Source: a virus | Virus record (IMG/VR): IMGVR_UViG_3300036045_000005 | Location: 9,636-73,635 of that record | Direction: 5' to 3' (one strand) | DNA: 64,000 bases | Part shown: positions 11,999-28,286 of the stretch, piece by piece | Layout: each line of letters begins with the position of its first letter | Position numbering within the stretch: position 1 is the stretch's first letter | Program-made: the position numbers and the translations under genes | Notes under the pieces: model-generated | Seen by the model: only the letters and a program-made list of their open reading frames with translations | Databases searched by the model: none | What the model was told of the DNA's origin: nothing

Positions 11999-12243
11999 AC
12001 GAGCAACAATTCATGATAACGCTGGGGCAGCGCATCAGGTACGCTCGTATGCGAGCCGGGCTAACTCAGCAAAAATTATCCAAGCGAGTCGGAGTATCAC
12101 GTGCCCAAATTACCAACATCGAGCGAGGCGTGGGCGGGGCCTCACTGTGGACGATTGCTCGGATTGCTGCGGGCTGCGAGATTGATTTACATACGTTGCT
12201 CAATCCCAGTGTTTTACCGCACAGAGAGGAGGAACGGCCGTGA
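11995..12243 (+). CDS. XRE/Cro-CI-type HTH regulator
   Basis: LGQRIR.AR...GLTQ..LS..VGVSR.QI.NIERG. Confidence 0.9.
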   Translation: MNEQQFMITLGQRIRYARMRAGLTQQKLSKRVGVSRAQITNIERGVGGASLWTIARIAAGCEIDLHTLLNPSVLPHREEERP

Positions 12244-13219: not shown

Positions 13220-13843
13220 ATGGATTACGAGATTACAAAGATCGGCCACCGTCTGACTATAAAGGTTATTGACATAGGTCTCGCGGGTAGAGAGACATTA
13301 CACGGGATCGTCTTGAACCCGACCGAACGGGGTGTTGACCGGTCTGTAGTTGAGAAGTATCTCCAATCCCTCATCAATCACATCACCTATGTCCGCGAGG
13401 CTGGCCTGCAAATAGGGGTCAACCCACAACAACTAGCAGAACATGATGCCTCTAAATTCTCCCTGCAGGAGTTTCCCCAATACGCCCGTCAATACGCAGG
13501 AGATAGCGGTGATCCAGACGGCTGGGCCAACGCCTGGCTGCACCATATCCACCACAACCCCCATCATTGGCAGTATTACATCTTCCCTGACGGCTACAGC
13601 CCGAAGGGGAGCAAGGTAGAGAATGGGGCCGTGCCAATGCCGCCCCACTTCGCCCTGGAAATGGTCGCTGATTGGATGGGCGCAAGTATGGCTTACACTG
13701 GTTCGTTCGATATGACCGACTGGCTGGTTAAAAACATGTCACGTATTCGCCTGCACAGCGAAACAGCCGATTTTGTGAACAACACCCTGGATATGCTGGG
13801 CTACGCCGATGTGGTGTGGATGCAACGGTGGGCAGGTGCATGA
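13220..13843 (+). CDS. DUF5662-like HD-domain phosphohydrolase
   Basis: HDASKFS..E, WLHH...NPHHWQY, EMVADW.GAS. Confidence 0.8.
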   Translation: MDYEITKIGHRLTIKVIDIGLAGRETLHGIVLNPTERGVDRSVVEKYLQSLINHITYVREAGLQIGVNPQQLAEHDASKFSLQEFPQYARQYAGDSGDPDGWANAWLHHIHHNPHHWQYYIFPDGYSPKGSKVENGAVPMPPHFALEMVADWMGASMAYTGSFDMTDWLVKNMSRIRLHSETADFVNNTLDMLGYADVVWMQRWAGA

Positions 13844-14250
13844 GCCGAACCTCTCCTCTCTTGACATGCCCTCATTGCGGGCAATCCATGAGGCGAACAG
13901 AACCGGAACTGACAACGGCCGCCAATCATCGCTATCGTTGTCAGTGCGGCCGTTTTTATGAATGGACACCAAGCGATTCTGCTACGGATAGTAACCGATT
14001 GATCCAGATTAACTATGTTTTTGACACCACAGGTACAGCCCACCAGGAGACCATGAAAGGACCTGGTTATAGACCACGAAACCATCCCTGCCATTTCCCT
14101 GTGGCAGCCCTGGGCGAGCCTGGCGGCGGTTGCTTGATGTGCAAAGAGTGGAAACAAAATGGATACGGCAAATGGCGGCCGTATGCTATGCGCTTTTCCG
14201 ATTACCGCCACAAAACAGCGGCAGCAGCACAGCAGGAGTATTGGCAGTGA
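13840..14250 (+). CDS. Zinc-ribbon hypothetical protein
   Basis: CPHC...CQCG and C...CLMC; ATGA-coupled. Confidence 0.55.
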   Translation: MSRTSPLLTCPHCGQSMRRTEPELTTAANHRYRCQCGRFYEWTPSDSATDSNRLIQINYVFDTTGTAHQETMKGPGYRPRNHPCHFPVAALGEPGGGCLMCKEWKQNGYGKWRPYAMRFSDYRHKTAAAAQQEYWQ

Positions 14251-14262
14251 CTTTGAGGCAAC

Positions 14263-14448
14263 ATGGTAAATTGTACCCAGGCGAGTGGCAACGGCCGTTC
14301 GCCTATCCCCGATAAACAAATGGAAAAAGAATTGATGCACTTGCGACGGCAACTCTCGAACATCGTCAAGCTGGCCATCCCGGCTCTTGAAAATGTTGAG
14401 GATTTGTTGCAATTGCCGGAAGATAAACGCATCAAAATCGAACGCTAA
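14263..14448 (+). CDS. Hypothetical protein immediately upstream of the late region
   Basis: 61-aa ORF with GAGG RBS. Confidence 0.5.
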   Translation: MVNCTQASGNGRSPIPDKQMEKELMHLRRQLSNIVKLAIPALENVEDLLQLPEDKRIKIER

Positions 14449-14473
14449 CGGCGCAGAGGACTGCGCTTAACTC

Positions 14474-14541
14474 GCCCCTCTCGTAATTGACAGCGGCACA
14501 TTTGATGGACAAATGTCCTGATGGTGTGCCGCTTTTTATTT
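14474..14541 (+). promoter_or_regulatory. Late-operon leader/attenuator element, copy 1
   Basis: GCCCCTCT-N7-GACAGCGGC, stem, GCCGC-TTTTT, upstream of terS. Confidence 0.7.
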
Positions 14542-14609
14542 GCCTTCGGATAGTGATATTTGCAGGCGAATGATACAGAAGGGACTTGTGAGACGCATAG
14601 GAGCGAGAC

Positions 14610-15194
14610 GTGGCACAGCAAAACACGGCCGCAAAAATCAAACTGGCAGAGCGTCGGCAAATGGCGGCGGATTTACGCAAGACCGGCCTCTCCTTCCAGG
14701 CCATTGCCGACATGATGAGCCAGAGCCTGGGCATCCCCTATAACAAGGCGATGGCTCACCGGGATGTGGTGCATGTGCTGGACGAACTGGTGGCGAAAAC
14801 GTCGGAGACGGCCGAACAGATTTTATCGCTTGAGTTGCTGCGCCTGGATGATTTAACAGCCGCCTGGTGGCCGACGGCTGTTGGGTTAAAGCCGTTGGTG
14901 GGGGTTGACCTGGCAGACCCGGAGGCGGTCAGGCGGTGGCTTGATGCCAACCGGGAAACGCTCGATAAGGACGCTGCCAAAATCATCCTGGATGTGATGG
15001 CACGGCGGGCCAAGATGCTGGGGCTGGATAAGGAGAATGTCAACCTGTTTACCCCTAAGCCTATCGTCATGGCTCATGCTGATTTAAGCGACGTTGAGGA
15101 AGATGACCTTGACCGTATCATCGCTAACCTACAAGCAGCAGTTGGCTTCCGCCCTGGTGGAGAAGCAACGGCGGACAACGCGGCCAGCAGTTAG
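14610..15194 (+). CDS. terS: Terminase small subunit (putative)
   Basis: N-terminal HTH (LRKTGLSFQAIAD), RLDDL, RRAKMLGLD; directly upstream of terL. Confidence 0.75.
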   Translation: MAQQNTAAKIKLAERRQMAADLRKTGLSFQAIADMMSQSLGIPYNKAMAHRDVVHVLDELVAKTSETAEQILSLELLRLDDLTAAWWPTAVGLKPLVGVDLADPEAVRRWLDANRETLDKDAAKIILDVMARRAKMLGLDKENVNLFTPKPIVMAHADLSDVEEDDLDRIIANLQAAVGFRPGGEATADNAASS

Positions 15195-16770
15195 TAGCCG
15201 TCACACCCCTGGCCTTGATCTACTCTCCTGGACGGCCGTCTATCGCCGCGCCTTAAAACCCGGTGTGCCATTTGATCTGGTCAGCTACCCCTACCAAGCC
15301 GCGCTCTATGCTTGCACTGCTCAACGGATGGTGGTGATGAAGTGTGCCCAGGAGGGTATTAGCGAGTATGCGGTGAGCTACGCCATTCATGGCTGTGATC
15401 AGCGACGGGCTACGGTGTTGTATGTTTTCCCCACTGATACGGCCGTCAGCGACTTTTCTTCTGCCCGCATTGGCCCGGCGATTGAAGCCTCCAGCTATCT
15501 GGCGCGGGTTGTGGTGGATGGGGCAGGCAAGGAGAAAAGCGGCGCAGACCGAATCACCCTCAAGCGGATTCGTGACAACTTCCTGTATCTGCGTGGTGGG
15601 CACGTCAAACCGAACGGTCAGGCCCCGCAATTGAAATCGGTGGATGCGGACATCATCGTCCTGGATGAGTGGGATGAGATGGACGGCCGTGCGCCAGCGA
15701 TAGCCCGCAAACGGTTGGGCCATAGTGCCATTGCTGAGGAGCGGGACATCAGCACCCCAACCTACGTTGGTCGGGGAATTCATGCTGAGTACCTGAAATC
15801 TGACCAGCGCGAATGGCACGTGCCTTGCCCCCATTGTGGCGAACGCCAGCCCATCACCATCAACCAGGTTGTGACGGAGTGGGATCAGCTGGAACGGCCG
15901 GTTGTCTGGCATGGGATGAAAGACGGCCGTGCCTTTGCTGCCTGCCGCAAGTGCGATGGGGAATTAGACCGCCTCGCTCCCGGAGAGTGGATTGCTGGCC
16001 AACCAGGTCAGCCAGTTGCAGGCTTCCACCTTTCCAAGTTGTTCAGTCCCACCGGAAACCTGGACGCGATAGTGGCGGGTTTGCAGGAGGTGGACGAGAC
16101 GAAGCGGCGGGAGACGGTAAACCAGGATTTGGGGCTACCTTACAAACCACGCGGGGCGAACATTACCGATGTGGTGCTTGATGAGTGTCGCCGCGATTAT
16201 GCCCATGGGCCGGTGCGGGGTGAGCGGCCGTTTATGGGAGTAGATGTGGGGCGGGTGCTGCATGTGGTCATTCGTGGGCCGCGTAATTCTGACGGTGAAC
16301 GGCCGCAACGGTTTGCCGGGCATGCGGATAGCTTTGAAGAAGTCGGTCGTCTCGTTCACCAATATAACGTGCAGACGGCCGTGATTGACGCTTTGCCGGA
16401 GACCCGTAAGGCGCGAGACTTGCAAGCCAGCTTCACAGACGGCCGTGTCTGGTTGGCTTATTACACTGGCAGCGACGTGGGCACAAAGAAAGTAGAACCG
16501 GCTGATTGGAACGGCCGTGAGGGAGTGGTTAGTCTGGATAGAACCCGAATGATGGACATGACCCTGGCGCGGTTTATCGGCGGTGCGCCAGAGAACACCC
16601 TGCCTGCCTATGCTACCGACATCCCAGATTACTACGCCCAACTGAAAGCCCCGGTGCGCCAATTGGAAGATGGTATTGCCCGCTACGTGGAGAACGGGCC
16701 GGATCACTTCGCCCATGCGGAGAATTACTGCACGGCCGCCGCCCTGCGCGAAAGCTGGCTGTCATGGTAG
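15103..16770 (+). CDS. terL: Terminase large subunit, lambda GpA-like
   Basis: PYQ, KCAQEGISE Walker A variant, VLDEWD Walker B, ISTPT, SDQREWHVPCPHCG zinc motif, MGVDVG nuclease, DH.AHAENY. Confidence 0.92.
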   Translation: MTLTVSSLTYKQQLASALVEKQRRTTRPAVSSRHTPGLDLLSWTAVYRRALKPGVPFDLVSYPYQAALYACTAQRMVVMKCAQEGISEYAVSYAIHGCDQRRATVLYVFPTDTAVSDFSSARIGPAIEASSYLARVVVDGAGKEKSGADRITLKRIRDNFLYLRGGHVKPNGQAPQLKSVDADIIVLDEWDEMDGRAPAIARKRLGHSAIAEERDISTPTYVGRGIHAEYLKSDQREWHVPCPHCGERQPITINQVVTEWDQLERPVVWHGMKDGRAFAACRKCDGELDRLAPGEWIAGQPGQPVAGFHLSKLFSPTGNLDAIVAGLQEVDETKRRETVNQDLGLPYKPRGANITDVVLDECRRDYAHGPVRGERPFMGVDVGRVLHVVIRGPRNSDGERPQRFAGHADSFEEVGRLVHQYNVQTAVIDALPETRKARDLQASFTDGRVWLAYYTGSDVGTKKVEPADWNGREGVVSLDRTRMMDMTLARFIGGAPENTLPAYATDIPDYYAQLKAPVRQLEDGIARYVENGPDHFAHAENYCTAAALRESWLSW

Positions 16771-16806
16771 GAGTGGCGGGGTGGGTGCAGCCCAAAGGAG
16801 AACATC

Positions 16807-17037
16807 ATGCAAATTAAACAGTGGGTTGAACAGAAGACAGAGCGTATTACGGCGAAGGCGAGTGAAGTGCAAAGACAGGTGGCGGCAGAGACGGCCGTTG
16901 CCCGTGCTTTGGGCATCTCCGTGCGCCAACTTCGCCGCCGAATCAATCGGGAAGCGGCGAACACGGTTAGAGCCACCAAACCAGAACCACATTTCCGGGC
17001 GGGGTTGGTGGCTCGCCAGAAGAAGGCGCGGCCATGA
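16807..17037 (+). CDS. Small basic HTH-like protein
   Basis: AAGGAG RBS; VARALGISVRQLRR. Confidence 0.55.
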   Translation: MQIKQWVEQKTERITAKASEVQRQVAAETAVARALGISVRQLRRRINREAANTVRATKPEPHFRAGLVARQKKARP

Positions 17038-17270
17038 ACCGCACAGATAACCGAGCGACAAGAGCGATTAACGTCAATGATTGGGATGCCTATATTGCCC
17101 AACGCAATGCGGCGCGGCGGCGTGGGCGAAGTTTGCCGGCCGTACTGCTCGGCGCATTAACGGGGTTTGCCAGTGCCATTGTTGGCCTGGCTTTTGTGTC
17201 GTTGTTATGGGAGGCAGCGGCATGGTTACGAGGATGCTATGAAGATAGCTTCGGGCCGCGACGGCCGTAA
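17034..17270 (+). CDS. Small membrane protein
   Basis: One hydrophobic segment; ATGA coupling. Confidence 0.5.
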   Translation: MNRTDNRATRAINVNDWDAYIAQRNAARRRGRSLPAVLLGALTGFASAIVGLAFVSLLWEAAAWLRGCYEDSFGPRRP

Positions 17271-18765
17271 ACTGAACGCTTACTTGTTGGATGGCGATGG
17301 CATGAAGGATATTCCTCTGACGGCCGTCTCTTCCAGCGACATTGAACGGTGGTTCCGCAATGGCACGACTACCGCCAAAGACCCGACACAGTATTACGAA
17401 CGGGTGGTGACGCTCTTTCGTTGCGTGGAGCATCGTGCTTCTTCGCTGGCCACCATGCCGCGCCAGATCGAAAGCGTGGAAACCGGGCAGAAGGTTGCTA
17501 CTGCCAATTTCCCCTCACCGCAATTTGATGACGACGGCAAGCCGTTGACTGAGGAAAACCTGCCCTTTGAGATTGACCTGGACGATCTGCTGTGGCGCAC
17601 GGAGTTAGCGCAATGTCTGTTGGCCGCATCCTACTGGCATGTGTTAAAGAATCGGGTGAAGGTGACGGAAGTACGCTGGTTAGACCCGCGCACTATCAGC
17701 CCTAATTACACCCGCTACAAAGGTCTGGTCAGTTTCGGCCGTACCGCCAACGGTATCAACAAAACGATTCCCGTGGAGGAGATGGCTTACGTCTGGCGGC
17801 CGGGCTTGCAGGAGTTGGGGCCAGGTGTTGCCCCTGGTCAGGTGGCGGCGCGGAAAGCGGGCATTGCCGATAACATGGACAGCTTCATCGAAATCTTCTT
17901 CGAGAAGGGGGCGATGCCGACGATGGTGGTGTTTGCCGAGACACGGCCGGAGGAGCCAGAGCGTAAGCGAATTAAGAGCTACCTGGAAAAGATCATGACG
18001 GGGATTGGTAACGCTTTTGGGATTGAAGTGCTGAATTCCTCGCTCAAATTCCAGACGCTCACCCCGCCGCTCAAGGACATGATCATCCCGAATATCGAGG
18101 ACAGTGCCCAGAAGGGTATTGTAGTGGCTTTGTTGGGTGGGGCGGGTTCGGCCGTTATCGGTGGTTCGGCGAATTTCGCAACGGCCGAAGTGGAAGACAT
18201 CAACTTTTACAACAAAATCATGATCCCGGAGGCAAACCTTATCTTCCAGAAGCTGAACAAAACCTTCTTCAAATCTCAGGGGTTGAGGCTGGTGGCCCGG
18301 CCAGACCTGCTGGAGGTTTTCCAGCGGCAGGAAAGCCGGAAGGTGCTGGATGCTACCCGCCTGTTTGACCGGGGAGCGATTACGGCCGATGAGCTGCGCC
18401 AGGCGGCGGGCTACCAACCGAGCACAGCGCAAGAGAAACAAGAGGCATTAACCGGGCTGGTGGATTTGGCTCAGGCTACCGAAACACAAACTGGTGCGCT
18501 CGGCGAAGCCGAGCGCACCAGGGAAAAAGAGCAGGAAGTACGCCGTTGGGAGCGTAAGGTACTTAAGCGTTTCCCAGATGTACCACCTTACGCCATCCCC
18601 TTTGCGCCAGAGCATTTGACCTCACAGGAAGCGATTGCCATTCGCCAGGCGTTGCTGACGGCGGGGACGGCGGAGGAGGTGAAGGCGGCGTTTGCTGCCC
18701 CCTTTCGCCCCGAAAGGCCCTTTCGCGTCCACGCTCGCGTTAAAAGCGGAAGTTCATCGGGATGA
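17239..18765 (+). CDS. Portal protein (HK97-type)
   Basis: FRCV..RA..LA..P, W.DP..I, FFEKGAMP, NFATA, IT.DELR...GY; follows terL. Confidence 0.9.
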   Translation: MKIASGRDGRKLNAYLLDGDGMKDIPLTAVSSSDIERWFRNGTTTAKDPTQYYERVVTLFRCVEHRASSLATMPRQIESVETGQKVATANFPSPQFDDDGKPLTEENLPFEIDLDDLLWRTELAQCLLAASYWHVLKNRVKVTEVRWLDPRTISPNYTRYKGLVSFGRTANGINKTIPVEEMAYVWRPGLQELGPGVAPGQVAARKAGIADNMDSFIEIFFEKGAMPTMVVFAETRPEEPERKRIKSYLEKIMTGIGNAFGIEVLNSSLKFQTLTPPLKDMIIPNIEDSAQKGIVVALLGGAGSAVIGGSANFATAEVEDINFYNKIMIPEANLIFQKLNKTFFKSQGLRLVARPDLLEVFQRQESRKVLDATRLFDRGAITADELRQAAGYQPSTAQEKQEALTGLVDLAQATETQTGALGEAERTREKEQEVRRWERKVLKRFPDVPPYAIPFAPEHLTSQEAIAIRQALLTAGTAEEVKAAFAAPFRPERPFRVHARVKSGSSSG

Positions 18766-19513
18766 CAACGATGACCTGGGTGACATTGAACAGACGGCCG
18801 TCACCGATATTCATGTGGCTCTGCAAAAGCAACTGCGGGCAATTCGCAACGGGCACGGCCGTTCTGAAGATGAAATCATCGCCAGTATTGAGACCATCCT
18901 GGCGGCGAACTCCGAAGATTTACTGACGGCCGTCGCTACCCTGCTCACCAGTGGCACCGAAGCGGGTGGGGCAATGGTGGCCGACACCCTGATCGGTACG
19001 GGTATCAGCGTAGATTGGGCATTAGCAGATGCGGCCGCCAGCGAGTTTGTCCAGGGCTATAGCTTTGACCTGGTGACGGGCATTAACAATACAACGGCCA
19101 CCCGTCTGCGGGGGGTGCTGCGTAGCTGGATTGAGCAGGGTGGGGACATGGAGGAGCTGGCTAACAGCATCCGCCCCATCTTCGCCAATGAGCCAGCCAC
19201 CGCCCGGATTGAGGCAATCTTCAATGTAGACCGGGCGCAGATGATTGCCGAGACGGAAGCGACGCGGGCTTATGCTGAGGGCAAGGTGGCCGGTTACATG
19301 GCGAGTGGCCTGGCTGACCTCCCGCCGGAGCGCAAGCCGCCGGATGATAGCCATGTGCGCTGCCGCTGCGATGTGACGTTGGAGAAGCAGGAGAATGGCG
19401 AGTGGCATTGGATATGGCTGACGGCGAATGATGAACTTGTATGTGATATTTGCGGCCCGCTTCACGAACAATCTGTTGGGTTGGCGAAAGAGGCGTATGT
19501 GGTTGCTGCTTGA
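18692..19513 (+). CDS. MuF/gp7-like head morphogenesis protein (possibly fused to portal by +1 frameshift)
   Basis: RA.MIA.TE..RAY, H.RCRC and W.TA.D..VC..C..L motifs; only a TTG start, overlapping the portal end. Confidence 0.8.
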   Translation: MLPPFAPKGPFASTLALKAEVHRDDNDDLGDIEQTAVTDIHVALQKQLRAIRNGHGRSEDEIIASIETILAANSEDLLTAVATLLTSGTEAGGAMVADTLIGTGISVDWALADAAASEFVQGYSFDLVTGINNTTATRLRGVLRSWIEQGGDMEELANSIRPIFANEPATARIEAIFNVDRAQMIAETEATRAYAEGKVAGYMASGLADLPPERKPPDDSHVRCRCDVTLEKQENGEWHWIWLTANDELVCDICGPLHEQSVGLAKEAYVVAA

Positions 19514-19564
19514 TTCGTGATGACGATGCCAATATAATGTATGATTAAATCTGATTTAATCAAG
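19510..19564 (+). promoter_or_regulatory. Promoter with tandem operator-like motifs
   Basis: TTGATT(19510)-17-TATAAT(19533); TATGAT-TAA-ATCTGA overlapping TCTGAT-TTA-ATCAAG. Confidence 0.6.
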
Positions 19565-19667
19565 TTGAGTAAAAACGCAGCCACCGACCAGGCAGGACGG
19601 CCGTACCGCCTCATTTACCTGGACGGCGTGGGGCATATCCTGACACCGGCCGATTTGGAGGAACTCT

Positions 19668-19979
19668 ATGCACATTACTGCCAACGAACCGATAGCGCAA
19701 CAGGTGAGGGTTGTGCTGCTGAATGGAACGGATGTGACGGCGTTGACGACGGAGGTGGACACGAAGGAGGGGTGGGTGAAGTTGCTGTTGATGGGGGCGA
19801 ACGGCCGTATCCTGTTGGACAGTGGGTCTAACCCCATTACCTTGCAGGTTCACGGTCGGGTGGTGGTTGGCTTTCACTCCGTCTACGTTTGCCCCTCCTG
19901 TGGCCTGGGCTTTGAGTTTGCCCGTGATTGGGTGCGGCATATTGCTGCGCCCCACTTTGTAGCTGATGAGCGAATATAA
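19668..19979 (+). CDS. Hypothetical protein with C2H2-like zinc finger
   Basis: GGAGG RBS; YVCPSC...F.....W..H....H. Confidence 0.6.
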   Translation: MHITANEPIAQQVRVVLLNGTDVTALTTEVDTKEGWVKLLLMGANGRILLDSGSNPITLQVHGRVVVGFHSVYVCPSCGLGFEFARDWVRHIAAPHFVADERI

Positions 19980-20361
19980 GATTGAACTGATTGGCGATGA
20001 GGAAATCGCCGCGCTATTGGAGGTGTTGAGCAAGCCTTACTTCCTCCAGCCAGCGTTCAACCGGATTGGGGCGCGGCTTCGCACGGAGATGGCGAAGTAC
20101 CCACCACCGCCGCCCGACAGCAAATACCGGCGCACTGGCAAGCTCGGCCGTAGCTGGGCGCATGAAGTGAAAAGTAGCCTGTTTGCGATGGAGGCGATTA
20201 TCGGCAACAACACGCCTTACGCCCCAGATGTGCAGGGTGAGGGGCAGCAAGCGGGCATCCACCAGGGACGCTGGCAGACGGATCAGGAAGTGCTGGATGC
20301 CAATACCCATTTTGTGCTTGAGGAGATTGGGGAGGAAGTGGATAAGGTTTTGCGGTCGTGA
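19966..20361 (+). CDS. HK97 gp10-like neck/tail-completion protein
   Basis: YRRTGKLGRSW and GNNTPYA..V motifs. Confidence 0.75.
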   Translation: MSEYKIELIGDEEIAALLEVLSKPYFLQPAFNRIGARLRTEMAKYPPPPPDSKYRRTGKLGRSWAHEVKSSLFAMEAIIGNNTPYAPDVQGEGQQAGIHQGRWQTDQEVLDANTHFVLEEIGEEVDKVLRS

Positions 20362-20376
20362 CGGCCGTGAGGAGAC

Positions 20377-20646
20377 ATGATGTTTATCCAAGTGGGAAAA
20401 CTAACGATCAACACAGACCAAATTGTTTATGTGGAAGAGCATGATTACCAGGGGGTGGCGATGCTCACCGTCACGTTTACGCATGGTCTACCCAAGAAAT
20501 TAGTCGGGGAGGAGGCAGCGGAGTTCAAGGAGAAACTGGCGAAGGTGACAACCGATACTGTTATCCACTCTCATATAACGTTTCAGGTACCCAAAACGAA
20601 AGGGCTGACGGATAGGCTGGCCGCCTATGTGGGGAAGATAAAATGA
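20377..20646 (+). CDS. Hypothetical protein
   Basis: GAGGAG RBS; IN.D.I.YVE. Confidence 0.55.
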   Translation: MMFIQVGKLTINTDQIVYVEEHDYQGVAMLTVTFTHGLPKKLVGEEAAEFKEKLAKVTTDTVIHSHITFQVPKTKGLTDRLAAYVGKIK

Positions 20647-20999
20647 GCGACATGATCAGTGCCAAAGAAGCGGGTGAGTTGATTGGCGTTCACGCTTCCA
20701 CCATCGGCATCTGGATTCAGACGAGGCAGATAGAGGGCGCGAAGGTGGACGGCTACTGGCAGGTGCCACGGGCGGCGGCCGAGGCGAAAGCGGCTACTTA
20801 CAAACGCCCTGTCCCCACACCGGATGAACGGAGCCGAATCACCGTGAGCCGCAAACCACCGGCCAGACCGGGCATTATTGATGCAGATGCGATGCGCCGG
20901 GCCAGGGAAAAGGTGATTGCGGTTTGGTCAGAGTGTATGCCGGAGGCTGAAGCACGGCGATGGTTTGCCGAGTTATTGGAGGCGATGAAGTCTGATTGA
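20643..20999 (+). CDS. Excisionase/MerR-like HTH_17 DNA-binding protein
   Basis: IS.KEA.ELIGVH.STI..WI....I.G.KV.G.W.V. Confidence 0.75.
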   Translation: MSDMISAKEAGELIGVHASTIGIWIQTRQIEGAKVDGYWQVPRAAAEAKAATYKRPVPTPDERSRITVSRKPPARPGIIDADAMRRAREKVIAVWSECMPEAEARRWFAELLEAMKSD

Positions 21000-21100
21000 C
21001 TTTTTGTTTTGTTTCTGTAAAATTAAATCAAACAAATTCATGCCCCTCTTGGGAAACCGACAGCGGCTTGTGAGACCCCTCACAAGCCGCTTTTTTGTTG
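20996..21100 (+). promoter_or_regulatory. Promoter plus late-operon leader/attenuator element, copy 2
   Basis: TTGACT-16-TAAAAT; GCCCCTCT(21042)..GACAGCGGC; 13-bp stem at 21062-21091 with T-tract just before the capsid RBS. Confidence 0.8.
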
Positions 21101-21113
21101 TTTGGAGGTCAGT

Positions 21114-23534
21114 ATGCCTTCAGAAGAAGAAATGAAAATCGCCGCTGTGAATGACAGCACGAATGCCGTCACCACCGGCAGCGACGCGAAAGTAACCGCT
21201 ATCACCATCACCGGCACGGCCGACAGCGGCACACAAGCGACTGAGCCGACGGCCGTAGAAGCAACAACCCCAGTCGAACCAATCCCTGCGACTGAACCAG
21301 AACCGGAAGCTGGCAACGAACCGTTGAAAGCCACCGCCCTCAATGACGTAGTAAGCGCGGTGTTTAGTGCCATCTGGCGCGTGCTAGAAGCCAGCCGTGA
21401 ATATGATGCCTGGACTTCCCATGTTTACGACGGCTTTGCCATTGTCCAGAAGGGGGCCGGGTATTGGCGGGTGGATTACACCATCGTGGACGGGCAGGTG
21501 GTCTTGCAACCCCGCGAGGCGTGGACGCTGGTGGAAGCGGAGTGGGTGGAAGCCGAGCGGCTAGAGAACACCACCGTCAGCTTTGGCGGTGAGGTGAAGG
21601 CTCTAGGCGCGGGCATCGTCGGTGGCTATCTGGTGAAGTTTAGCGACGCGGACACCCCTGATCTGGAAGATGATTTCTTCGATGCGGAGACGGATTTCGG
21701 CCCGCATGAGAAGTGCCTGGTCTATTACCAGCACGGGCTGGATGCCACGTTAGGCGTGAAGCGTCTGGGCGGCAAATTCGCCAAAGGGCTGGCAAGCCTG
21801 AAGGTTGACAAGGTGGGTGTCTGGATTCAGGCACAACTTGACCTGGCCGACGAATACGAAGCGGCCGTCTACCAGCTAACGGAAATGGGTAAGATGGGCT
21901 GGTCGTCTGGCACGGCCACCCACCTGGTGCGGCGCGAATTGAAGTCAGGGAGCAACGGCCGTAAGTCGTACCACATCACCACCTGGCCGTTGGGATTGGA
22001 TGCCAGCCTGACCCCCACACCGGCCGCAGGCCCGGAACAAACCAAAGTTGTACCCCTCAAGTCTTATGCCCAGGAGCAGGCAGCCAGGCTGCCCGGCCTA
22101 AAGGCGTTGTTACAGGAGGTGAAGACTATGGCTGTCTCCACTTCAACCGCAACCGCGACGGCCGTACAACCAACCCCTGCCCCTGGTAAAGAAACAGTAA
22201 TAACCCAATCGAATAAATCGGAGGATTTCAACATGCCCCCTGAAGAACTTGAAAAATTGATTACCAACGCAGTGAAAACCGGCGTTGCCGCAGTCGGAGA
22301 AAAGGTAACGGCCTTAGAAGCCAAACTCGCTAAAGAACCGGCCGTCAATGACAGCGGCTACAACGTACCCGGCGAGGATGAAGAAAAGAAGTTTACGGAC
22401 ATCCTGTACAACGTGCGCTACGGCGGTAAGAGCGATGACGAGGTGAAACACCTGGTCATGGACGAAATAGCTGGCGGTAATTACAAGGCGTTCGTCATGG
22501 CCCAGAACATCGCCTTCGCCAAATACATCCGCTTCGGTACTGGCGAGATGGATGCGAAAGAGGTGAAGTTGCTCAAGCGGCAGGTCTTTGCCCCGGCTTA
22601 CGTCATCAAAGCGTTGCAAGACGGCATGGACATGCGCGAATTGAAGGACGCGATGGTAGAAGCGCAGGGTAGCCTGGGTGGGTACGCGGTGCCACCGAAC
22701 ATGCAGGAGAACATCGCCCGGCGTCTACCTGGCCTGACGGCCGTACGCGGTGGCGGCGCTCGTGTCATCACCCTGGTGCGTGGCAACTCCATCGAAGTGC
22801 CCGTCTATAGCGGTGGCAATGACCGCTACGTGGGCAACCTGCGCGGTCAGTGGGGAACAGAAACCCAGGCCCCAGCCGAACAAAACGCCACGCTCGGCAT
22901 GGAAACGGTTATCGCCGACATCTACACCTACAAAATCCCGATGTCTACTTCGCTGGTTGAGGATGCTTCCAACCTGACGACACTGGTAGAAGACGACGTC
23001 GTGATGACGGTAGCCATTGATGAGGATGAGGTGTTCCTGATAGGCGACGGTGTGGGAAAGCCGCTGGGCTGGTTGCCGGGTGCGGCAAACAGCCTGAGCC
23101 TGACGGAAGTCAACTCCGGTGGCGCGTCCGCTCTTACGACGGCCGGCATTAAAGCCTTAAAGCGCGGTGTGGCCTCCCAATATCGTGGCCGGGGCAGCTT
23201 TGTTGCCAATAGCGACACCTACGGCGACATCGAAGCCCTCACCGTCAGCGGCACTGGCTCAGATTTTGCCTTCGGCGACTTGAGCGAAGAGGGTACTTTG
23301 CTGCGCCGTCCCGCTTTGGAATCTGAGGCGATGCCTGACGTAGCGGCCAACGCCTTCGCCATCCTGTTCGCGGACATGAGCGGCTACTACATTGTAGACC
23401 GGGCTGGCCTGACAGTGATGCGGATGCAGGACAGTTACACAGGGATCAACAAGGTGGAGTTGCACGTGCGCAAGCGCGTTGGTGGCCGACCGGTTGAGAC
23501 CTGGAAAGCGGCCGTGCAAAAGGTGGCGGCATAG
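21114..23534 (+). CDS. Fused prohead protease-scaffold-major capsid protein (HK97 fold)
   Basis: Protease motifs GYLV.F..DL..D.F, YYQHG, GVW.QA, GWSSG; capsid motifs GGYAVP, GDG.GKPLG, FADMSGY.IVDR. Confidence 0.92.
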   Translation: MPSEEEMKIAAVNDSTNAVTTGSDAKVTAITITGTADSGTQATEPTAVEATTPVEPIPATEPEPEAGNEPLKATALNDVVSAVFSAIWRVLEASREYDAWTSHVYDGFAIVQKGAGYWRVDYTIVDGQVVLQPREAWTLVEAEWVEAERLENTTVSFGGEVKALGAGIVGGYLVKFSDADTPDLEDDFFDAETDFGPHEKCLVYYQHGLDATLGVKRLGGKFAKGLASLKVDKVGVWIQAQLDLADEYEAAVYQLTEMGKMGWSSGTATHLVRRELKSGSNGRKSYHITTWPLGLDASLTPTPAAGPEQTKVVPLKSYAQEQAARLPGLKALLQEVKTMAVSTSTATATAVQPTPAPGKETVITQSNKSEDFNMPPEELEKLITNAVKTGVAAVGEKVTALEAKLAKEPAVNDSGYNVPGEDEEKKFTDILYNVRYGGKSDDEVKHLVMDEIAGGNYKAFVMAQNIAFAKYIRFGTGEMDAKEVKLLKRQVFAPAYVIKALQDGMDMRELKDAMVEAQGSLGGYAVPPNMQENIARRLPGLTAVRGGGARVITLVRGNSIEVPVYSGGNDRYVGNLRGQWGTETQAPAEQNATLGMETVIADIYTYKIPMSTSLVEDASNLTTLVEDDVVMTVAIDEDEVFLIGDGVGKPLGWLPGAANSLSLTEVNSGGASALTTAGIKALKRGVASQYRGRGSFVANSDTYGDIEALTVSGTGSDFAFGDLSEEGTLLRRPALESEAMPDVAANAFAILFADMSGYYIVDRAGLTVMRMQDSYTGINKVELHVRKRVGGRPVETWKAAVQKVAA

Positions 23535-23547
23535 TTGCATAAAAATC

Positions 23548-23573
23548 CGGCGGGGCTGACTATCCAGCCCCGC
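23548..23573 (+). terminator. GC-rich hairpin after the capsid gene
   Basis: GGCGGGGCTG/CAGCCCCGCC inverted repeat; weak U-tract. Confidence 0.5.
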
Positions 23574-23595
23574 CCCTTTCTTGGAGGATTCTCTC

Positions 23596-24045
23596 ATGAG
23601 CATGTTACTCAATTCTATAGGCAAAGACCTGTACATCCAGGTTTTAGAGCCGGGTCTGACTGCCCTCACCAACGCGAAATTTCCCGCCTCTGGCTCTTTC
23701 ATTGATGTCTCTCGCTTCGAGCGGTTCGCGTTTCTGGTCGGTCTGGACGTGATTGCCGATGCCCTGGATTTCAAGGTACAGCAGGCGACAGCGGTCAACG
23801 GCACACCGAAAGACATCACGGGGGCAGCCGATACTGATTCAGCGGGCACTGATGACCAGAAGTGGATTGTTATCGAGGTGCAAACCCGCAAGCTGGACAT
23901 CAACAACGATTACCGATACGTCACGCTGGATGTGAGCGGTGTCAGTGGTACCGACAACGCCTGCATCGTTTTTATCGGTGTTCCGACGAAACGGCCGGTC
24001 ACGCAGCACGCCGACTTCCTGGATCACGTTATCGTCGCTGGGTAG
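23596..24045 (+). CDS. Putative head decoration/accessory protein
   Basis: GGAGG RBS, beta-rich, directly after the capsid gene. Confidence 0.6.
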   Translation: MSMLLNSIGKDLYIQVLEPGLTALTNAKFPASGSFIDVSRFERFAFLVGLDVIADALDFKVQQATAVNGTPKDITGAADTDSAGTDDQKWIVIEVQTRKLDINNDYRYVTLDVSGVSGTDNACIVFIGVPTKRPVTQHADFLDHVIVAG

Positions 24046-24114
24046 TCGCCGCCTATTGGTGGCCCATGAGGACGGCCGGCGGCACCTGGCCGTCCTCTTA
24101 TCGGGAGATAACAC

Positions 24115-24462
24115 ATGGCACGTACAGCACTAACCGTAAACGAAATTGATAAGGACGGCCTGATCGTCAGCCTTTCGGCTGCCAATGCCGATGGGCATTC
24201 TGTGGCCGCAGACCGCAATGCGGCTAGTTATATTGAAGTGCTGAACGGTAGTGGCTCGTCCATCACCGTCACCATTCAAACCCCGGCCACCGCAGGCGGG
24301 CTGGCCATTGCGGATCGTACCGTCTCCATCGGCGCAGGGGTGCGGCAAAAGATTTCATTGGAAGATCGAGACCTGTATGTTCGGGACGATGGCACGATCT
24401 ATGTGGACTTTTCGGCCGTTACCACTGTGACCTGCGGCGCGTTCAAAATCTCGAAGGACTGA
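24115..24462 (+). CDS. Putative virion structural protein
   Basis: Beta-rich; V.NG.GSSITVTI.TP. Confidence 0.6.
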   Translation: MARTALTVNEIDKDGLIVSLSAANADGHSVAADRNAASYIEVLNGSGSSITVTIQTPATAGGLAIADRTVSIGAGVRQKISLEDRDLYVRDDGTIYVDFSAVTTVTCGAFKISKD

Positions 24463-24464
24463 TA

Positions 24465-25088
24465 ATGGCCTACGCCACGCTGGAAGAGGTGATGCAGGAG
24501 ATGGGTGTGCTGGAAGAGGGCATCAATACTGATCTGTTGCAGGCCAAGATTGATGCTGCCCAGGACATCGTTGAAAACGTCACCCATCGCTGTTTTGAGG
24601 CGGATGCGGATGAAACCCGGCTGATTGATTACAGCGAGGAAACGGTGGACGGCCGCACCCTGCACCTGCCCTACGACATTTGCCAGATCGCCGAAGTGCT
24701 GAATGGTGATGGTGAGGAAGTCACGGTGAATGAGTACGTGACCACGCCGCGATTACGCACCGTCTCTAGCGGCTCTTCGGTGATGCCGGCCGTGCGTGAT
24801 GCCTGGCCCTGGTACGCGCTGACCATCAAATCTTCGGTGTCCAAAGCCTGGACGTATGAGGATGACCGGGAGGAGGCGATCAGTATCACCGGCCGGTGGG
24901 CTTTTAGCGTGACCCCGCCAGCAGCGATTAAGGCGGCCACCATTCGCCTGGCTCATTGGCTCTACATGCAGAAGGATGACCTGCGCGACCGGGAAGAGAG
25001 CGAGGTTTCGCAAGATGGGATTCTCCTGTTGATGGGCGATTTGCCCAATGACGTGCAGGCGCGGCTGCTGCCGTTTGTGAGGTTGTAA
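24465..25088 (+). CDS. Head-tail connector (gp6/gp15-like)
   Basis: MAYATLEE start, P.AIK.A...LA..LY, LP.DV...L.PF. Confidence 0.8.
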   Translation: MAYATLEEVMQEMGVLEEGINTDLLQAKIDAAQDIVENVTHRCFEADADETRLIDYSEETVDGRTLHLPYDICQIAEVLNGDGEEVTVNEYVTTPRLRTVSSGSSVMPAVRDAWPWYALTIKSSVSKAWTYEDDREEAISITGRWAFSVTPPAAIKAATIRLAHWLYMQKDDLRDREESEVSQDGILLLMGDLPNDVQARLLPFVRL

Positions 25089-25549
25089 TGTCAGACCTGG
25101 TGGGAATTCACAATGCGTTAGCCGCCCAAACCATCACGCTCACGAACGGCCGTGAGGTTCCGGCGTGGGCGTTGGATGAGGTGAAGAATAGCGTTATCTC
25201 TGACCGACTGCCGATTCGTCTGCTGCTGCCACCGGGCGCGGAAGGGGGTTCGGCCGTTGAGGGTTTTGAGATGGTCAGCTTCAAGAACGCGCAGGTCGTC
25301 TGGCGGGTGGTGGATTTGCTGCTGTACCAAACGATTGGCAAAGCGGGCGGGGTGGCGAATGTGTGGGAAGTGTTGACGGATTACGTCGCCCAATATGTCC
25401 GCTATTTTTCGACGCACCGCAAGCTCACACCCAGCGCAACGATCACCGGCTTTGCTCCACAAGCGGGTGTGTTTCAATGGCCGCGTGGCAGTGAGAACCA
25501 GTATCACGGCGTTCTGATGGCGGTGCTGGTGAGCGAAACGATTTGTTGA
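25088..25549 (+). CDS. Putative tail terminator/completion protein
   Basis: Position and size between connector and tail tube genes. Confidence 0.55.
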   Translation: MSDLVGIHNALAAQTITLTNGREVPAWALDEVKNSVISDRLPIRLLLPPGAEGGSAVEGFEMVSFKNAQVVWRVVDLLLYQTIGKAGGVANVWEVLTDYVAQYVRYFSTHRKLTPSATITGFAPQAGVFQWPRGSENQYHGVLMAVLVSETIC

Positions 25550-25577
25550 CCGCAGAGAATCTGCGACCGGAGGACGT

Positions 25578-25973
25578 ATGAACAAAGTCATTGTTACCGA
25601 AGCGGGCGATGGGTTTAAGTTTTTAGACCCGTTTGCTAAGGCGTTTAAGGTGAAAGCGGGCGAGACGGCCGTCGTTCTGAGCCAGACGTATGCCCATTCG
25701 CTGGTGAGGGATGGCTATGCTGAATGGGCAGAGGAGCCAGAACCACCACTAGCGGAAACGGAAGCGGCTGTATCCGATGAGGAAGCGACTGCTGCGCTGG
25801 TGGAAGTGGATGGCATTGGCCCCAAGACGGCCGAGAAGCTGGTAGCGGCTGGCATCCGTTCGCTGGCTGAATTGGTGGCGGCTGACCCGGCCGCTTTAGC
25901 GACAACATTGGACGTGACTGAAAGCAAGGTCGCAGCCTGGCAGGAAGCGTCCGCACAGCTTCAAGGAGAATAA
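25578..25973 (+). CDS. Helix-hairpin-helix (HHH_5/NusA-AR-like) protein
   Basis: L.EVDGIGPKTAEKL..AGI.S..EL..AD. Confidence 0.8.
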   Translation: MNKVIVTEAGDGFKFLDPFAKAFKVKAGETAVVLSQTYAHSLVRDGYAEWAEEPEPPLAETEAAVSDEEATAALVEVDGIGPKTAEKLVAAGIRSLAELVAADPAALATTLDVTESKVAAWQEASAQLQGE

Positions 25974-25975
25974 TC

Positions 25976-26449
25976 ATGGCAATATGTGAAGGTTCAAGCG
26001 GCGCAGACCTGCTGGTAGAGTATTCCGACGATCCGAGCCTGACCTGGAATGATGTCGGGCACACCTGGAACGAAGTGAATGGTGTGGTGGGTATGCTCGA
26101 CGTGACGGGCGGCGACAAGGAAGCGGCGATGAAACGCACCTTTGGCGGCAACGTCATCGCGGGTATGACTGGGGCTGGTTTGCAAAATGTCGTTCTGGAT
26201 GTGGTTTTTGAGAACGATGCCAACAGCTTCCTGGAATTCCTGACTGACACGTGGGATGGCACGGGTGAACGGTGCTATTACATTCGCTGGTCTTATAACG
26301 AGGGTGCCTCTGGCGCGTTACGACGCACGGCCAAAGTCGCCTTGCTGACCAACCCGTTTACGGGCGGTAATGCGGGTGATGCGAACCCGGTGAGCAAGCA
26401 GTTGACGCATGTGGTTGACGGTATTATTCATCGGGATGCAGTTCCTTGA
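25976..26449 (+). CDS. Major tail (tube) protein, putative
   Basis: 157 aa, strong RBS, upstream of the chaperone and tape measure genes. Confidence 0.65.
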   Translation: MAICEGSSGADLLVEYSDDPSLTWNDVGHTWNEVNGVVGMLDVTGGDKEAAMKRTFGGNVIAGMTGAGLQNVVLDVVFENDANSFLEFLTDTWDGTGERCYYIRWSYNEGASGALRRTAKVALLTNPFTGGNAGDANPVSKQLTHVVDGIIHRDAVP

Positions 26450-26451
26450 TC

Positions 26452-26481
26452 GTAAGGGGCGGATCTCAGACCCGCCCCTAT
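26452..26481. repeat. Degenerate GTAG-type REP-like hairpin
   Basis: GTAAGGGGCGG-ATCTCAGAC-CCGCCCCTAT resembles GTAGGGGCG...CGCCCCTAC REPs. Confidence 0.45.
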
Positions 26482-26496
26482 AATAGGAGATGTGCC

Positions 26497-27318
26497 GTGG
26501 GCAATCGGGAGGTCTACGTACCGCAACACGTTTTTCATACGGCCGCTGCTGAGGATTATCCGGGGGTGACGGCCGTTTCCGCCAAACTCATCTTCCCCAA
26601 CCCGTTTACATTAGGTGATTACAAACGTTGGTACCGGGCACTCATGCCGAACCTGGCGAACAAGGAAGACCCGGATAACGATGCTTTGCTGCGCGAATAC
26701 CGGGCAGCGATGACGATTGCGGCGTTGGAGGAGATAATGCCAGAGGGTGATGTTGAGCCCAACCTGCATAACCCGGATGCGTTTAATCTGCGTAATGTGG
26801 TGATTGTGGACGGCCGTGTGCCAGACGATCTACCCATCCCTTTTGCTACCTGGGTTTGTGATTGTGCCGAGGCGTATTTTGGCAGCTACGTCGTCCTGGA
26901 GAATCGCCAGACGAAGATCGCCCGGTTGACCCGCTTCCGGCTGTCATCCAACACCATTGACGTGGCCGAACCGATGCTTGCCGGTTTGTTGCCGGATTTG
27001 CAGACTTACACTGGCAGCGTGACCTTTGCAAAGGTGATGACGAAGACGAGTTATTCGCGTTGGCAAAAGTCGTTACGTGCTTTGCCCGGCGTGGAAGCCA
27101 CCGACATTGACAACACCTTCTTCATGCGCCAATACCGGGCGGCGTTGGAACTGATTGAGAGTTGGGCGGTGGGAGATATACCGTTAAAGCTGATGAAGCA
27201 CAAAGATGGGGAGGAAGCCCCTTTGCTGCTGGCCTCGTTCCTGGTGCTGGCGGCCGAGGCATATCTTGCCAAGACGATGACCTTAAAAAAAATGCCCGCG
27301 CTGTATGGGGTCACATAA
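26497..27318 (+). CDS. Tail assembly chaperone (gpG-like), internally duplicated
   Basis: Between tail tube and tape measure genes; ends at slippery TTAAAAAAAAT (27283-27293). Confidence 0.75.
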   Translation: MGNREVYVPQHVFHTAAAEDYPGVTAVSAKLIFPNPFTLGDYKRWYRALMPNLANKEDPDNDALLREYRAAMTIAALEEIMPEGDVEPNLHNPDAFNLRNVVIVDGRVPDDLPIPFATWVCDCAEAYFGSYVVLENRQTKIARLTRFRLSSNTIDVAEPMLAGLLPDLQTYTGSVTFAKVMTKTSYSRWQKSLRALPGVEATDIDNTFFMRQYRAALELIESWAVGDIPLKLMKHKDGEEAPLLLASFLVLAAEAYLAKTMTLKKMPALYGVT

Positions 27319-27608
27319 TTCGGAAGGGTCGGGATGGCCCACCGCCCTGGTCGCTGGCGTTGGCGCGGGAGTGCCTGGATTATTACGGGAATTGGTTGCA
27401 CTTCCCGCGCCCCGATGGCCCGTTGGCGCAAGATGAATATGAGATGGATTGTGTACATAATGCCTGGGCGATTGAGCGGATTTATTCTTCGGAGAAGGAT
27501 AATGAGTTCAAGCGGCGAAACGGCCGTTTCCGGCTTTGGGTAATGTCTAAATCGCCAGAGGATGAGCAAGGCGTTTGGCTATGTCCCTGGCTCGAAGATG
27601 AAGAATAA
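27285..27608 (+). CDS. gpGT-like extension reached by -1 frameshift
   Basis: The -1 frame is open from the A8 run and encodes P..GPL.QD, typical of gpT-like tails; no RBS of its own. Confidence 0.7.
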   Translation, partial: KKNARAVWGHIIRKGRDGPPPWSLALARECLDYYGNWLHFPRPDGPLAQDEYEMDCVHNAWAIERIYSSEKDNEFKRRNGRFRLWVMSKSPEDEQGVWLCPWLEDEE

Positions 27609-27610
27609 AA

Positions 27611-27645
27611 GCAAAAGCCCTGCTGGGAACAGACAGGGCTTTTGT
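27611..27645. terminator. Bidirectional intrinsic terminator
   Basis: CAAAAGCCCTG...CAGGGCTTTTG between convergent genes. Confidence 0.75.
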
Positions 27646-27704
27646 GTCTCTTGCGAGACAAGACCGACTGCATTATATGCAATTCGCCGGAGAGCTACAA
27701 CCCT

Positions 27705-28082
27705 CTATTCTACAGCGTTACCGGCCGTTGGTGTGCCTACTGCTTCTTCCTGGTAGCGCAGGTGCATCACTTGAAAGTCTTTGGTCATCACCACGTCAAA
27801 CGGCTCCCACCCGCCTTCACACAACTCCCTGAACAACCAGCGAGATATTCGCTCATCATTCCCATCTAGCCGATGTAGTTGCAAAAAACAAGTTGTGCCG
27901 GTGACATCATGTTGAACATGGCGTAACTCCACTTTGGGCGCATGTATTTTAGCCTTGTCTATCAGCCAGTCTAAAACGTCTACGTGGGTACAATATAGGT
28001 TGAGGCTGGTGTAGTTGATGAAGCCCTGCTTATCCCCCCACATCGTTTCAACGGTCATGCTCAAGTATTTGTAACGCTTCAT
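27705..28082 (-). CDS. Moron-like hypothetical protein on the opposite strand
   Basis: AGGAGG RBS and own promoter TTGACG-18-TATACT (28153-28124); the only well-supported minus-strand gene. Confidence 0.7.
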   Translation of the reverse strand: MKRYKYLSMTVETMWGDKQGFINYTSLNLYCTHVDVLDWLIDKAKIHAPKVELRHVQHDVTGTTCFLQLHRLDGNDERISRWLFRELCEGGWEPFDVVMTKDFQVMHLRYQEEAVGTPTAGNAVE

Positions 28083-28175
28083 GGGGTTCCTCCTGTTTGG
28101 TGAAACAACGCTAAGATGGGGTTAGTATAAGTGCGGTAGGGGACGGCCGTCAAACAATTCCCTTCCCCCTGCTAA

Positions 28176-28284
28176 TTGACCCCTATCCTTTGATAATGTA
28201 AAATTAAATCAAATCGAATTTAGCCCCTCTGGGAAACTTCCACAGCGGCTCGTGAGAACCCACTCACGAGCCGCCTTTTTGTTT
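28176..28284 (+). promoter_or_regulatory. Promoter plus late-operon leader/attenuator element, copy 3
   Basis: TTGACC-17-TAAAAT; GCCCCTCT(28223)..CACAGCGGC; 12-bp stem at 28245-28274 with T-tract before the tape measure start. Confidence 0.8.
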
Positions 28285-28286
28285 GA

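Follow-up and report, generated by a model that had tools for sequence, protein, structure and literature searches.

We analyzed a 64,000-nucleotide (nt) window of a temperate phage genome (bases 9636-73635 of the 73,635-bp IMG/VR virus record IMGVR_UViG_3300036045_000005) and describe a leader element that stands there in three copies, before the putative small terminase (terS), capsid and tape-measure genes. Sequence comparison indicates a real, conserved, multi-copy cis-regulatory RNA family that is new to description. On somewhat better than even grounds, we read each copy as a cis-acting leader RNA with two mutually exclusive folds, an antiterminator (AT) hairpin and an intrinsic terminator (T), which is opened by an AT-stabilizing factor.

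A preliminary description of this DNA, made from the sequence alone, had suggested a covariance model (CM) search and a comparison with Rfam. A CM was built and relatives were found in phage contigs, and the comparison gave no family match: Rfam 15 had 0 matches at gathering thresholds in the 64-kb window and, at E ≤ 5, five weak matches (19-21.5 bits) in three 3-kb loci around the copies, none at the elements. A literature search covering listings and the beginnings of abstracts turned up no description of such an element.

Three copies of a leader element before late operons

The pattern GCCCCTCT-N5-14-ACAGCGGC matches the window three times, always on the + strand (14474, 21042 and 28223), while 100 shuffles gave a mean of 0.00 and a maximum of 0 matches; the whole record holds the same three matches and no others. 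All three take the form GCCCCTCT-N8-11-ACAGCGGC followed by a hairpin and a T-tract, which is found exactly three times in the genome (Table 1). The copies are thus present where the preliminary description had placed them, and so are the hairpin and T-tract after each, with fold z-scores of -4.9 to -6.0 against shuffles. With filters off, the CM scored the copies at 55.4 bits and above, and the next + strand match reached 12 bits. By sequence and fold, copies 1-3 each have the GC-rich stem and directly following U-tract of an intrinsic terminator.

Copies 2 and 3 each follow a near-consensus sigma-70-type promoter, as had been claimed. They also share TGTAAAATTAAATCAAA exactly and a 17-mer spanning the -10, and the compensatory change from T-A to C-G between their stems is visible in the sequences. 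The copy 3 promoter is divergent from a minus-strand promoter-like site (28153 to 28124) upstream of a minus-strand gene (27705-28082). For copy 1, the promoter scan found no promoter of at least 9/12 directly upstream.

The terminator of copy 1 ends about 70 nt upstream of the GTG of putative terS (14610), and behind copy 2 the ATG of the capsid-fusion gene (21114) has GGAGG in front. The capsid and tape-measure assignments made earlier hold through their PHROG matches; terS is named by position and synteny, and its only family match in PHROGs is phrog_645, labelled RNase E. The tape-measure ATG (28287) lies 6 nt past the U-tract of copy 3, without a Shine-Dalgarno sequence. The same arrangement, a start codon 5-7 nt past the U-tract and no Shine-Dalgarno sequence, recurs in at least six elements (window 28281-28289; L134 647-660; L137, L142, L152 and L156). 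There the terminator hairpin would lie inside the ribosome footprint, and the switch may also gate translation of the read-through mRNA.

Two competing folds in the leader RNA

The aligned set comprises 18 elements of about 10 related phage contigs. GCCCCUCU and ACAGCGGC are almost complementary (G-C, C-G, C-G, C·C, C-G, U-A, C·C, U-A), ACAGCGGC includes the 5' base of the terminator stem, and the helix from box to ACAGCGGC is continuous with a short variable stem-loop. RNAalifold on 12 elements returned the terminator and, unexpectedly, a short helix between the boxes, in which the final U of GCCCCUCU is paired to the initial A of ACAGCGGC. When the box-to-ACAGCGGC segment was folded alone, the same hairpin with two 1x1 C·C loops appeared in 14 of 14 elements (-2.3 to -9.3 kcal/mol), and the full leaders took the terminator fold (-24 to -32 kcal/mol). 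Because the segment alone folds into the AT hairpin and the full leader into the terminator, the architecture of a terminator/antiterminator (AT/T) switch is well supported. AT and T have AGCGGC in common in 18/18 aligned elements (GGCGGC in two variants), and the two folds are mutually exclusive. The preliminary description had proposed an attenuation or antitermination switch outside Rfam; this core idea stands and is sharpened, with the GCCCCTCT box now seen to supply the 5' strand of the AT hairpin, the terminator's competitor.

Both helices are conserved as pairings. For the terminator plus inner stem of 12 elements, 95.8% of cells are paired compared with 75.2% in shuffles, covariation is 0.615 compared with 0.190 (0/500 shuffles as high), and slid registers pair 34-54%. 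In the terminator, the six basal pairs (AGCGGC/GCCGCU) show almost no variation, and the seven above them covary freely. The AT structure of 18 elements is paired in 96.5% of cells compared with 86.1% in shuffles (0/500), with 31-58% in slid registers. Every one of its upper three pairs shows double changes. In its lower five pairs, two cells apart, every change preserves pairing: C to U facing G in two cases, A to G facing U in one, and a single U-A to C-G. The AT loop varies from 3 to 9 nt. Single variants illustrate how pairing is kept: the closing U-A pair becomes C-G in G001:C555, C3 becomes U opposite G in G001:C497, giving G·U, and an A to G change in G032 keeps U·G in AT and gains G-C in the terminator. 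These three escaped the exact pattern and retain the design.

By eye, C·C stands at both mismatch sites in 15/18 aligned elements, with one U·C (in G125, replacing one C·C) and two C·A exceptions. Such near-invariant non-Watson-Crick nucleotides, and the lack of a protein candidate, would suit riboswitch-like sensing, in which the AT helix with its two C·C pairs binds a small ligand or metabolite, a metal ion or protons (C·C+) and is thereby stabilized against the terminator. If so, a physico-chemical signal, and not a phage protein, would open all late operons together through a sensor hairpin, a minimal riboswitch, about 25 nt long, in control of virion production. However, conservation covers about eight positions on each strand and no loop or junction, which would make a very small ligand pocket; no Rfam family threshold was reached; and it is usually phage proteins that time late-gene expression in phages. 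We consider such sensing very unlikely.

The calculated energies favor the terminator. From AT plus the upper T stem to full T, the direct path has a barrier of 3.3-4.7 kcal/mol, and full T lies 5.5-12.4 kcal/mol below the AT state (18 elements). Given this low barrier and the greater stability of T, the model predicts that naked RNA should default to termination, and therefore that read-through would need stabilization of AT or a block of lower-stem invasion.

We propose that during transcription GCCCCUCU would pair with ACAGCGGC, forming a weak AT hairpin with the short variable stem-loop. The 3' strand of AT, AGCGGC, would double as the bottom of the 5' arm of the strong intrinsic terminator. 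Once the rest is transcribed, T would take AGCGGC from AT, and RNA polymerase would stop before the terS, capsid or tape-measure gene. Late genes would be expressed only if the AT hairpin were held closed and the base of the T stem kept from forming beside the U-tract. The holder of AT would most likely be a phage-encoded RNA-binding protein that recognizes the lower helix, invariant and interrupted by two C·C mismatches. Actual termination, the existence of this trans factor and its identity are what we infer here.

We further considered whether the site is RNA or DNA. Lambda pR'-qut-tR' likewise combines a constitutive-looking sigma-70 promoter, a short terminated leader and late genes reached by read-through, and a Q-type system would make GCCCCTCT a DNA site at which polymerase, pausing close to the promoter, receives a Q-like protein. 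The near-consensus promoters of copies 2 and 3, the conserved sequence just past their -10 and the early terminator are as in lambda pR'-tR'. However, loading of Q depends on a DNA site and a promoter-proximal pause, whereas at least 10/18 elements here lack an adjacent promoter: ten show no TAnAAT hexamer in the 75 nt upstream, and among the eight that do have one the -10-to-box distance ranges from about 13 to about 43 nt. DNA binding also leaves unexplained why the boxes are parted by 5-13 nt that form a covarying stem-loop, and lambda has one site per genome where this phage has several copies with covarying RNA helices. ORF (open reading frame) translations of the phage were scanned (80 against Pfam and 20 against PHROGs, with some structural ORFs in PHROGs only or in none), and no Q family match was found among the 80. 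A Q-type system seems to us scarcely credible. Since the promoter is often absent, the -10-to-box spacing varies and the spacer forms a covarying stem-loop, the aligned sequences argue for an element acting in the transcript and not as a promoter-bound Q-type site. Of the likeness to lambda pR'-qut-tR' drawn in the preliminary description, the general logic remains (constitutive-looking promoter, early terminator) and the mechanism does not. The promoter-bearing copies share TA[AG]AATTAA[AG]TCAAA across distant relatives, including L041, L112 and L119, which we can account for only as the -10 and start region.

Three other roles for the conserved boxes were rejected. The box is not an anti-Shine-Dalgarno sequence, as the tape-measure copies have no Shine-Dalgarno sequence; box and ACAGCGGC are not two promoter elements, with a spacing ranging from 5 to 13 nt; and a triple helix in which the C-rich strand lies on the base of the stem was discarded since the purine strand is not homopurine.

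Relatives and conserved position of the element

A loose pattern scan of viral contigs gave at least 117 matches in at least 114 stretches, mostly by chance, and among the matches listed 10/117 had a hairpin and T-tract: the three copies of the window, four near-identical contigs with a very short stem (L036, L038, L086 and L092), and L041, L109 and L112. A stricter pattern returned three stretches from viral contigs, 16 from metagenome contigs and six from genome contigs. Judged by eye, L119, L121 (identical to L041), L126 and L134 (two copies) are real among the metagenome contigs, L120/L131 are uncertain and the remaining 10 resemble chance matches in GC-rich DNA; among the genome contigs, L137 and L140 are real and four are chance-like. 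One metagenome-assembled genome (MAG) labelled Anaerolinea sp., G001, holds four copies on four contigs (C213, C555, C580 and C497). A CM search across the bacterial order gave matches in 16/151 genomes, most at 30-35 bits and recognizable as ordinary GCGGC/GCCGC terminators; we accepted only the four in G001 and variants in three more genomes (G032, G125 and G151); G032, on which L151 depends, is unpublished. Together, the stricter pattern, protein searches and the CM give a family of L041, L109, L112, L119, L126, L134 (two copies and one variant), G001, G032, G125 and G151. Its occurrence in several genomes of one order is a suggestive hint to the host, the binning of phage contigs in a MAG being no proof.

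The position of the element is conserved as well. It stands before terS in the window, L126 and L140, before capsid homologues in the window, L112, G001:C497, G125 and G151, and before the tape-measure gene in the window, L041, L134 and L137 (identical to G001:C580, where a tape-measure-like 983-aa ORF follows). Since this position is kept before capsid proteins of only about 29-30% identity (G125 and G151), the element is, by sequence comparison, better conserved than the proteins behind it.

Conservation bears on whether a factor is needed at all. In a factor-free attenuator or insulator, the terminators would be constitutively leaky, the weak AT would only set a fixed read-through fraction, and the operons would be shielded from upstream transcription; the short terminated RNAs may then be mere by-products, or small RNAs that act in trans through a C-rich seed at the 5' end. 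No factor was matched in the Pfam scans, and the terminated product of copies 2 and 3, about 65 nt by promoter position, is small-RNA-like, with a single-stranded C-rich 5' end, a small hairpin and the terminator in its predicted fold. There is a precedent in Stx phages, for which short terminated pR' transcripts that can act as small RNAs have been described (PMC7547250). The pairing constraints on the leader (see below) would also by themselves slow sequence change. Nevertheless, the calculated switch to T is fast and strongly downhill, leaving little read-through from naked RNA, although the structural genes can be reached by no other route. Box, ACAGCGGC and both C·C mismatches remain unchanged where the capsids drift to the identities given above, which exceeds the needs of tuning, and no promoter stands directly before the terS-type copies from which a discrete small RNA could be made. 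A factor-free device therefore appears unlikely to us.

Several points weigh against the reading of a factor-opened switch. The lower AT helix hardly varies, so that its support consists of complementarity and a few wobble-preserving changes, and most elements were found with an exact pattern fixing both boxes. The tail pairs in 17/18 elements against 5.85/18 expected, and about a third of composition-preserving shuffles pair the tail too, because the upstream strand is C-rich and the tail G-rich. Because the elements are related to one another, the shuffle statistics make them look more independent than they are, and the shuffle counts are not probabilities. Triple pairing constraints, on the box, AGCGGC and GCCGCU, could explain the conservation without a sequence-specific factor. 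None of the Q, N, NusG/KOW, CAT_RBD and ANTAR families was found in the 80 ORF translations at E ≤ 0.01 (Pfam), which agrees with the statement in the preliminary description that no Q, N or NusG homologue is recognizable. Finally, RNA sequencing runs with the phage were looked for and DNA runs only were found, four of them, from sediment metagenomes of two studies.

In L112 (1550-1660), two tandem terminators, each starting with AACAGCGGC, precede the capsid gene behind a single GCCCCTCT box. Folding indicates two possible partners for the second terminator, the box and the 3' arm of the first once that is freed, and suggests a relay. The same arrangement would fit nut-like processive antitermination, in which the AT hairpin and C-rich strand load a phage protein, with host Nus factors, that modifies RNA polymerase to pass this terminator and later ones, and the overlap with the terminator is secondary. 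Lambda N-nut and HK022 put are also cis RNA signals at the heads of phage operons that defeat terminators, and each long late operon here is headed by one element. In nut (boxA-boxB), a conserved linear box stands beside a small hairpin, as it does here. In put, two hairpins are parted by a single unpaired nucleotide, as they are in the terminator fold here. Moreover, a GC-rich palindromic hairpin directly 3' of the capsid gene (window 23549-23574), with a weak T-tract on both strands, could need processive read-through; it is possibly a partial terminator setting capsid-to-tail stoichiometry. However, nut and put act processively on distant terminators without overlap, whereas the conserved 3' box here is the terminator stem itself and would be superfluous for a remote loading site. 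BoxB has a fixed sequence among the sites of one phage and is read sequence-specifically by N, unlike the small hairpins here, which differ in loop and stem among the three copies of one genome (loops UAAU, GAAA and AAC). No N-like or NusG-like protein was found among the 80 ORFs. We hold a nut-like system to be improbable.

The neighbors of the element were also compared. In L134 (8700-10152), a variant element (GCCCCCCCU...AGGCGGC, 29.8 bits), equipped with a promoter of its own (TTGAAA-N17-TATAAT), is found about 600 nt downstream of an antirepressor homologue. The neighbors of the tape-measure copy are not conserved: the window has a divergent 125-aa gene and G001:C580 has other ORFs, which as read from their translations (L147 3951-5413, just upstream of the element) are a 120-aa HNH-endonuclease-like and a 367-aa homing-endonuclease/intein-like ORF. 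Since the window holds an unrelated divergent gene there, this spot looks like an insertion hot spot.

A protein search for capsid homologues of the same order showed that the element is not universal. In G044 and G108, a sigma-70-type promoter, a conserved leader of another kind (GAGCRUCUUGAACGCCCC...) and then a strong terminator immediately precede the capsid homologue. The version in G007 has diverged, with GCCC/GGGC forming its lower stem and with an internal loop rich in C, and L118 has no leader terminator before its capsid homologue. As far as these sequences go, promoter, short leader, terminator and capsid gene are a common layout in the phage group, with at least two sequence classes. 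The classes would fit cognate factor-site pairs; the related yet different leader of the two prophages may point to classes of specificity like those of the lambdoid Q and N proteins.

Candidate factors, known systems and the phage genome

We searched the phage for a protein that could hold AT. The only recognized RNA-binding domain is that of a cold-shock domain gene (60798-61100, 5e-24, Pfam). The preliminary description had listed this protein as a candidate; it is real, yet has no tie to the element, and if it bound the pyrimidine-rich box it would favor termination, not read-through. A second earlier candidate, a helix-hairpin-helix protein, gained no support; its gene is placed among the tail genes. 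The small ORFs at 13840-14448 had also been named. Of these, the 144-aa Zn-ribbon ORF (13816-14250) has no counterpart upstream of terS in L140, the one relative read, whereas the ORF directly upstream of copy 1 (14320-14448) has homologues of 35-57 aa before the terS-type element in 3/3 cases (window, L140 and L126). It carries the motif RRQL..LE.VE..L.LP.DKR and looks helical with basic patches. No Pfam or PHROG match was found for it, an alignment search returned no relatives in viral contigs, and its best score in the ESM Atlas, 0.76, was uninformative. Its position makes it a candidate factor, synteny being no proof of function; translation ahead of the terminator suits, in positional terms, an autoregulatory antiterminator. 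Leader-peptide coupling via this ORF was rejected, as its stop codon lies 18-25 nt ahead of the box. All three terS-type leaders have an extra small hairpin at or just past this stop codon (window 14450-14467, L140 ~1510-1530, L126 ~317-335), which folds as GGCGCAG-AGGA-CUGCGCU in the window and was seen by eye in the other two.

Two further proteins were set aside as factors. Gp23 (4701-5702) is PAPS-reductase-like and probably a DNA-modification enzyme, and the ORF at 20643-20999, with a weak Ribosomal_S10 match (17 bits, below cut-off), is not conserved in relatives.

Among known systems, the closest in logic are the ribonucleic antiterminators (RAT) of BglG/SacY/LicT and the classical attenuators, in which one strand is common to AT and T. 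In RAT, a weak mismatched hairpin overlaps the 5' arm of the terminator, as in 18/18 elements here, and the protein-bound hairpin blocks a terminator that otherwise acts by default, the default also calculated here. The systems differ in that the 80 ORFs hold no CAT_RBD or PRD protein, and in that BglG/SacY/LicT control sugar operons while the present element heads phage structural operons in 3-4 copies per genome. The element is not known to have any sequence likeness to RAT. Classical attenuators and riboswitch expression platforms also use mutually exclusive AT and T helices with one shared strand; here there is no leader-peptide control codon logic, recognizable aptamer or Rfam family, and AT itself carries conserved nucleotides. 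ANTAR-regulated leaders have two tandem hexaloop hairpins, of which the second overlaps the terminator, and an ANTAR protein, whereas here a single AT hairpin has a loop of 3-9 nt and no ANTAR match was found.

What is known of late-gene control in phages comes mostly from Q and N of the lambda type, from activators such as RinA and Ogr, and from polymerase-binding proteins. A factor-opened leader would be a different solution, with the same AT/T RNA switch heading packaging, head and tail operons 3-4 times per genome, in temperate phages that occur in genomes of a little-studied bacterial order (including the Anaerolinea sp. MAG). The factor would probably be a new kind of RNA-binding antiterminator, for which a 25-nt RNA with the two conserved C·C mismatches could serve as bait. 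The CM, in turn, marks late-operon starts in uncultured phage contigs.

The virus record has a G+C content of 55.8%, and nearly all long genes of the window lie on the + strand. An exact 127-bp direct repeat at its ends (genome 1-127 and 73509-73635) has the typical length of an assembly overlap, and the record may be a circular or circularly permuted genome without true terminal repeats. The phage is temperate, since it encodes an integrase, a RusA resolvase and a replication-O-like protein within the first 9.6 kb of the record (Pfam), as well as a P22-type antirepressor. A megablast of 14000-30000 against a phage database matched no near relatives among deposited phages, and terL as a single-protein query found no relatives among viral contigs.

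Table 1. Coordinates of the leader copies and of other features (window numbering unless a genome or contig is given; CM scores with filters off; MFE, minimum free energy)
Feature	Coordinates	Strand	Basis
Copy 1 AT hairpin, GCCCCUCU-CG-UAAU-UG-ACAGCGGC, two C·C mismatches	14474-14497	+	MFE alone (((.((.(((....))).)).))), -5.6 kcal/mol
Copy 1 intrinsic terminator, long hairpin AGCGGCACA...UGUGCCGCU and U5AU3	14492-14541	+	Fold; CM 55.4 bits
Copy 2 sigma-70-type promoter TTGACT-N16-TAAAAT, then conserved TAAATCAAA	20996-21023	+	10/12 consensus matches
Copy 2 AT hairpin, GCCCCUCU-UGG-GAAA-CCG-ACAGCGGC	21042-21067	+	MFE alone (((.((.((((....)))).)).))), -9.3 kcal/mol
Copy 2 terminator, 13-bp stem and U6	21062-21097	+	Fold; CM 64.4 bits
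Copy 3 sigma-70-type promoter TTGACC-N17-TAAAAT	28176-28204	+	10/12 consensus matches
Copy 3 AT hairpin, GCCCCUCU-GGGA-AAC-UUCC-ACAGCGGC	28223-28249	+	MFE alone (((.((.(((((...))))).)).))), -8.7 kcal/mol
Copy 3 terminator, 12-bp stem, then C and U5	28245-28280	+	Fold; CM 64 bits
Conserved small ORF directly upstream of the terS-type element	14320-14448	+	42 aa from ATG 14320; open from 14263
Putative terS, GTG start, first gene under copy 1	14610-15194	+	Location before terL; same placement of homologues in L126 and L140
terL	15094-16770	+	Late region
Portal	17167-18765	+	Late region
Capsid (major head protein) fusion gene under copy 2	21114-23534	+	phrog_10, 5e-29
Tape-measure gene under copy 3	28287-30770	+	phrog_1535, 1e-15
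P22-type antirepressor and ParA-like ATPase	57157-59330		P22_AR_N, 2e-21 (Pfam)
DNA-modification genes	3341-9335, 12240-12818, 55106-56170; genome 3251-4186		Family searches
Other-class leaders before capsid homologues of G044 and G108	L169 93-172; L170 495-590 (minus strand)		

The phage also carries a PAS-HisKA-HATPase sensor histidine kinase (window 41295-42575, + strand; HATPase_c 3.7e-28, PAS 5e-10), an unusual cargo for a temperate phage, of which a short homologue fragment lies close to the element in L119. Its many DNA-modification genes encode three PAPS-reductase-like proteins, a DUF488 protein, a Mom-like match, a C5 cytosine methylase, an MT-A70 methylase and a D12 N6-adenine methylase. 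Gp23 has 70% identity to a protein of G001:C213, and terL is lower, at 60%.

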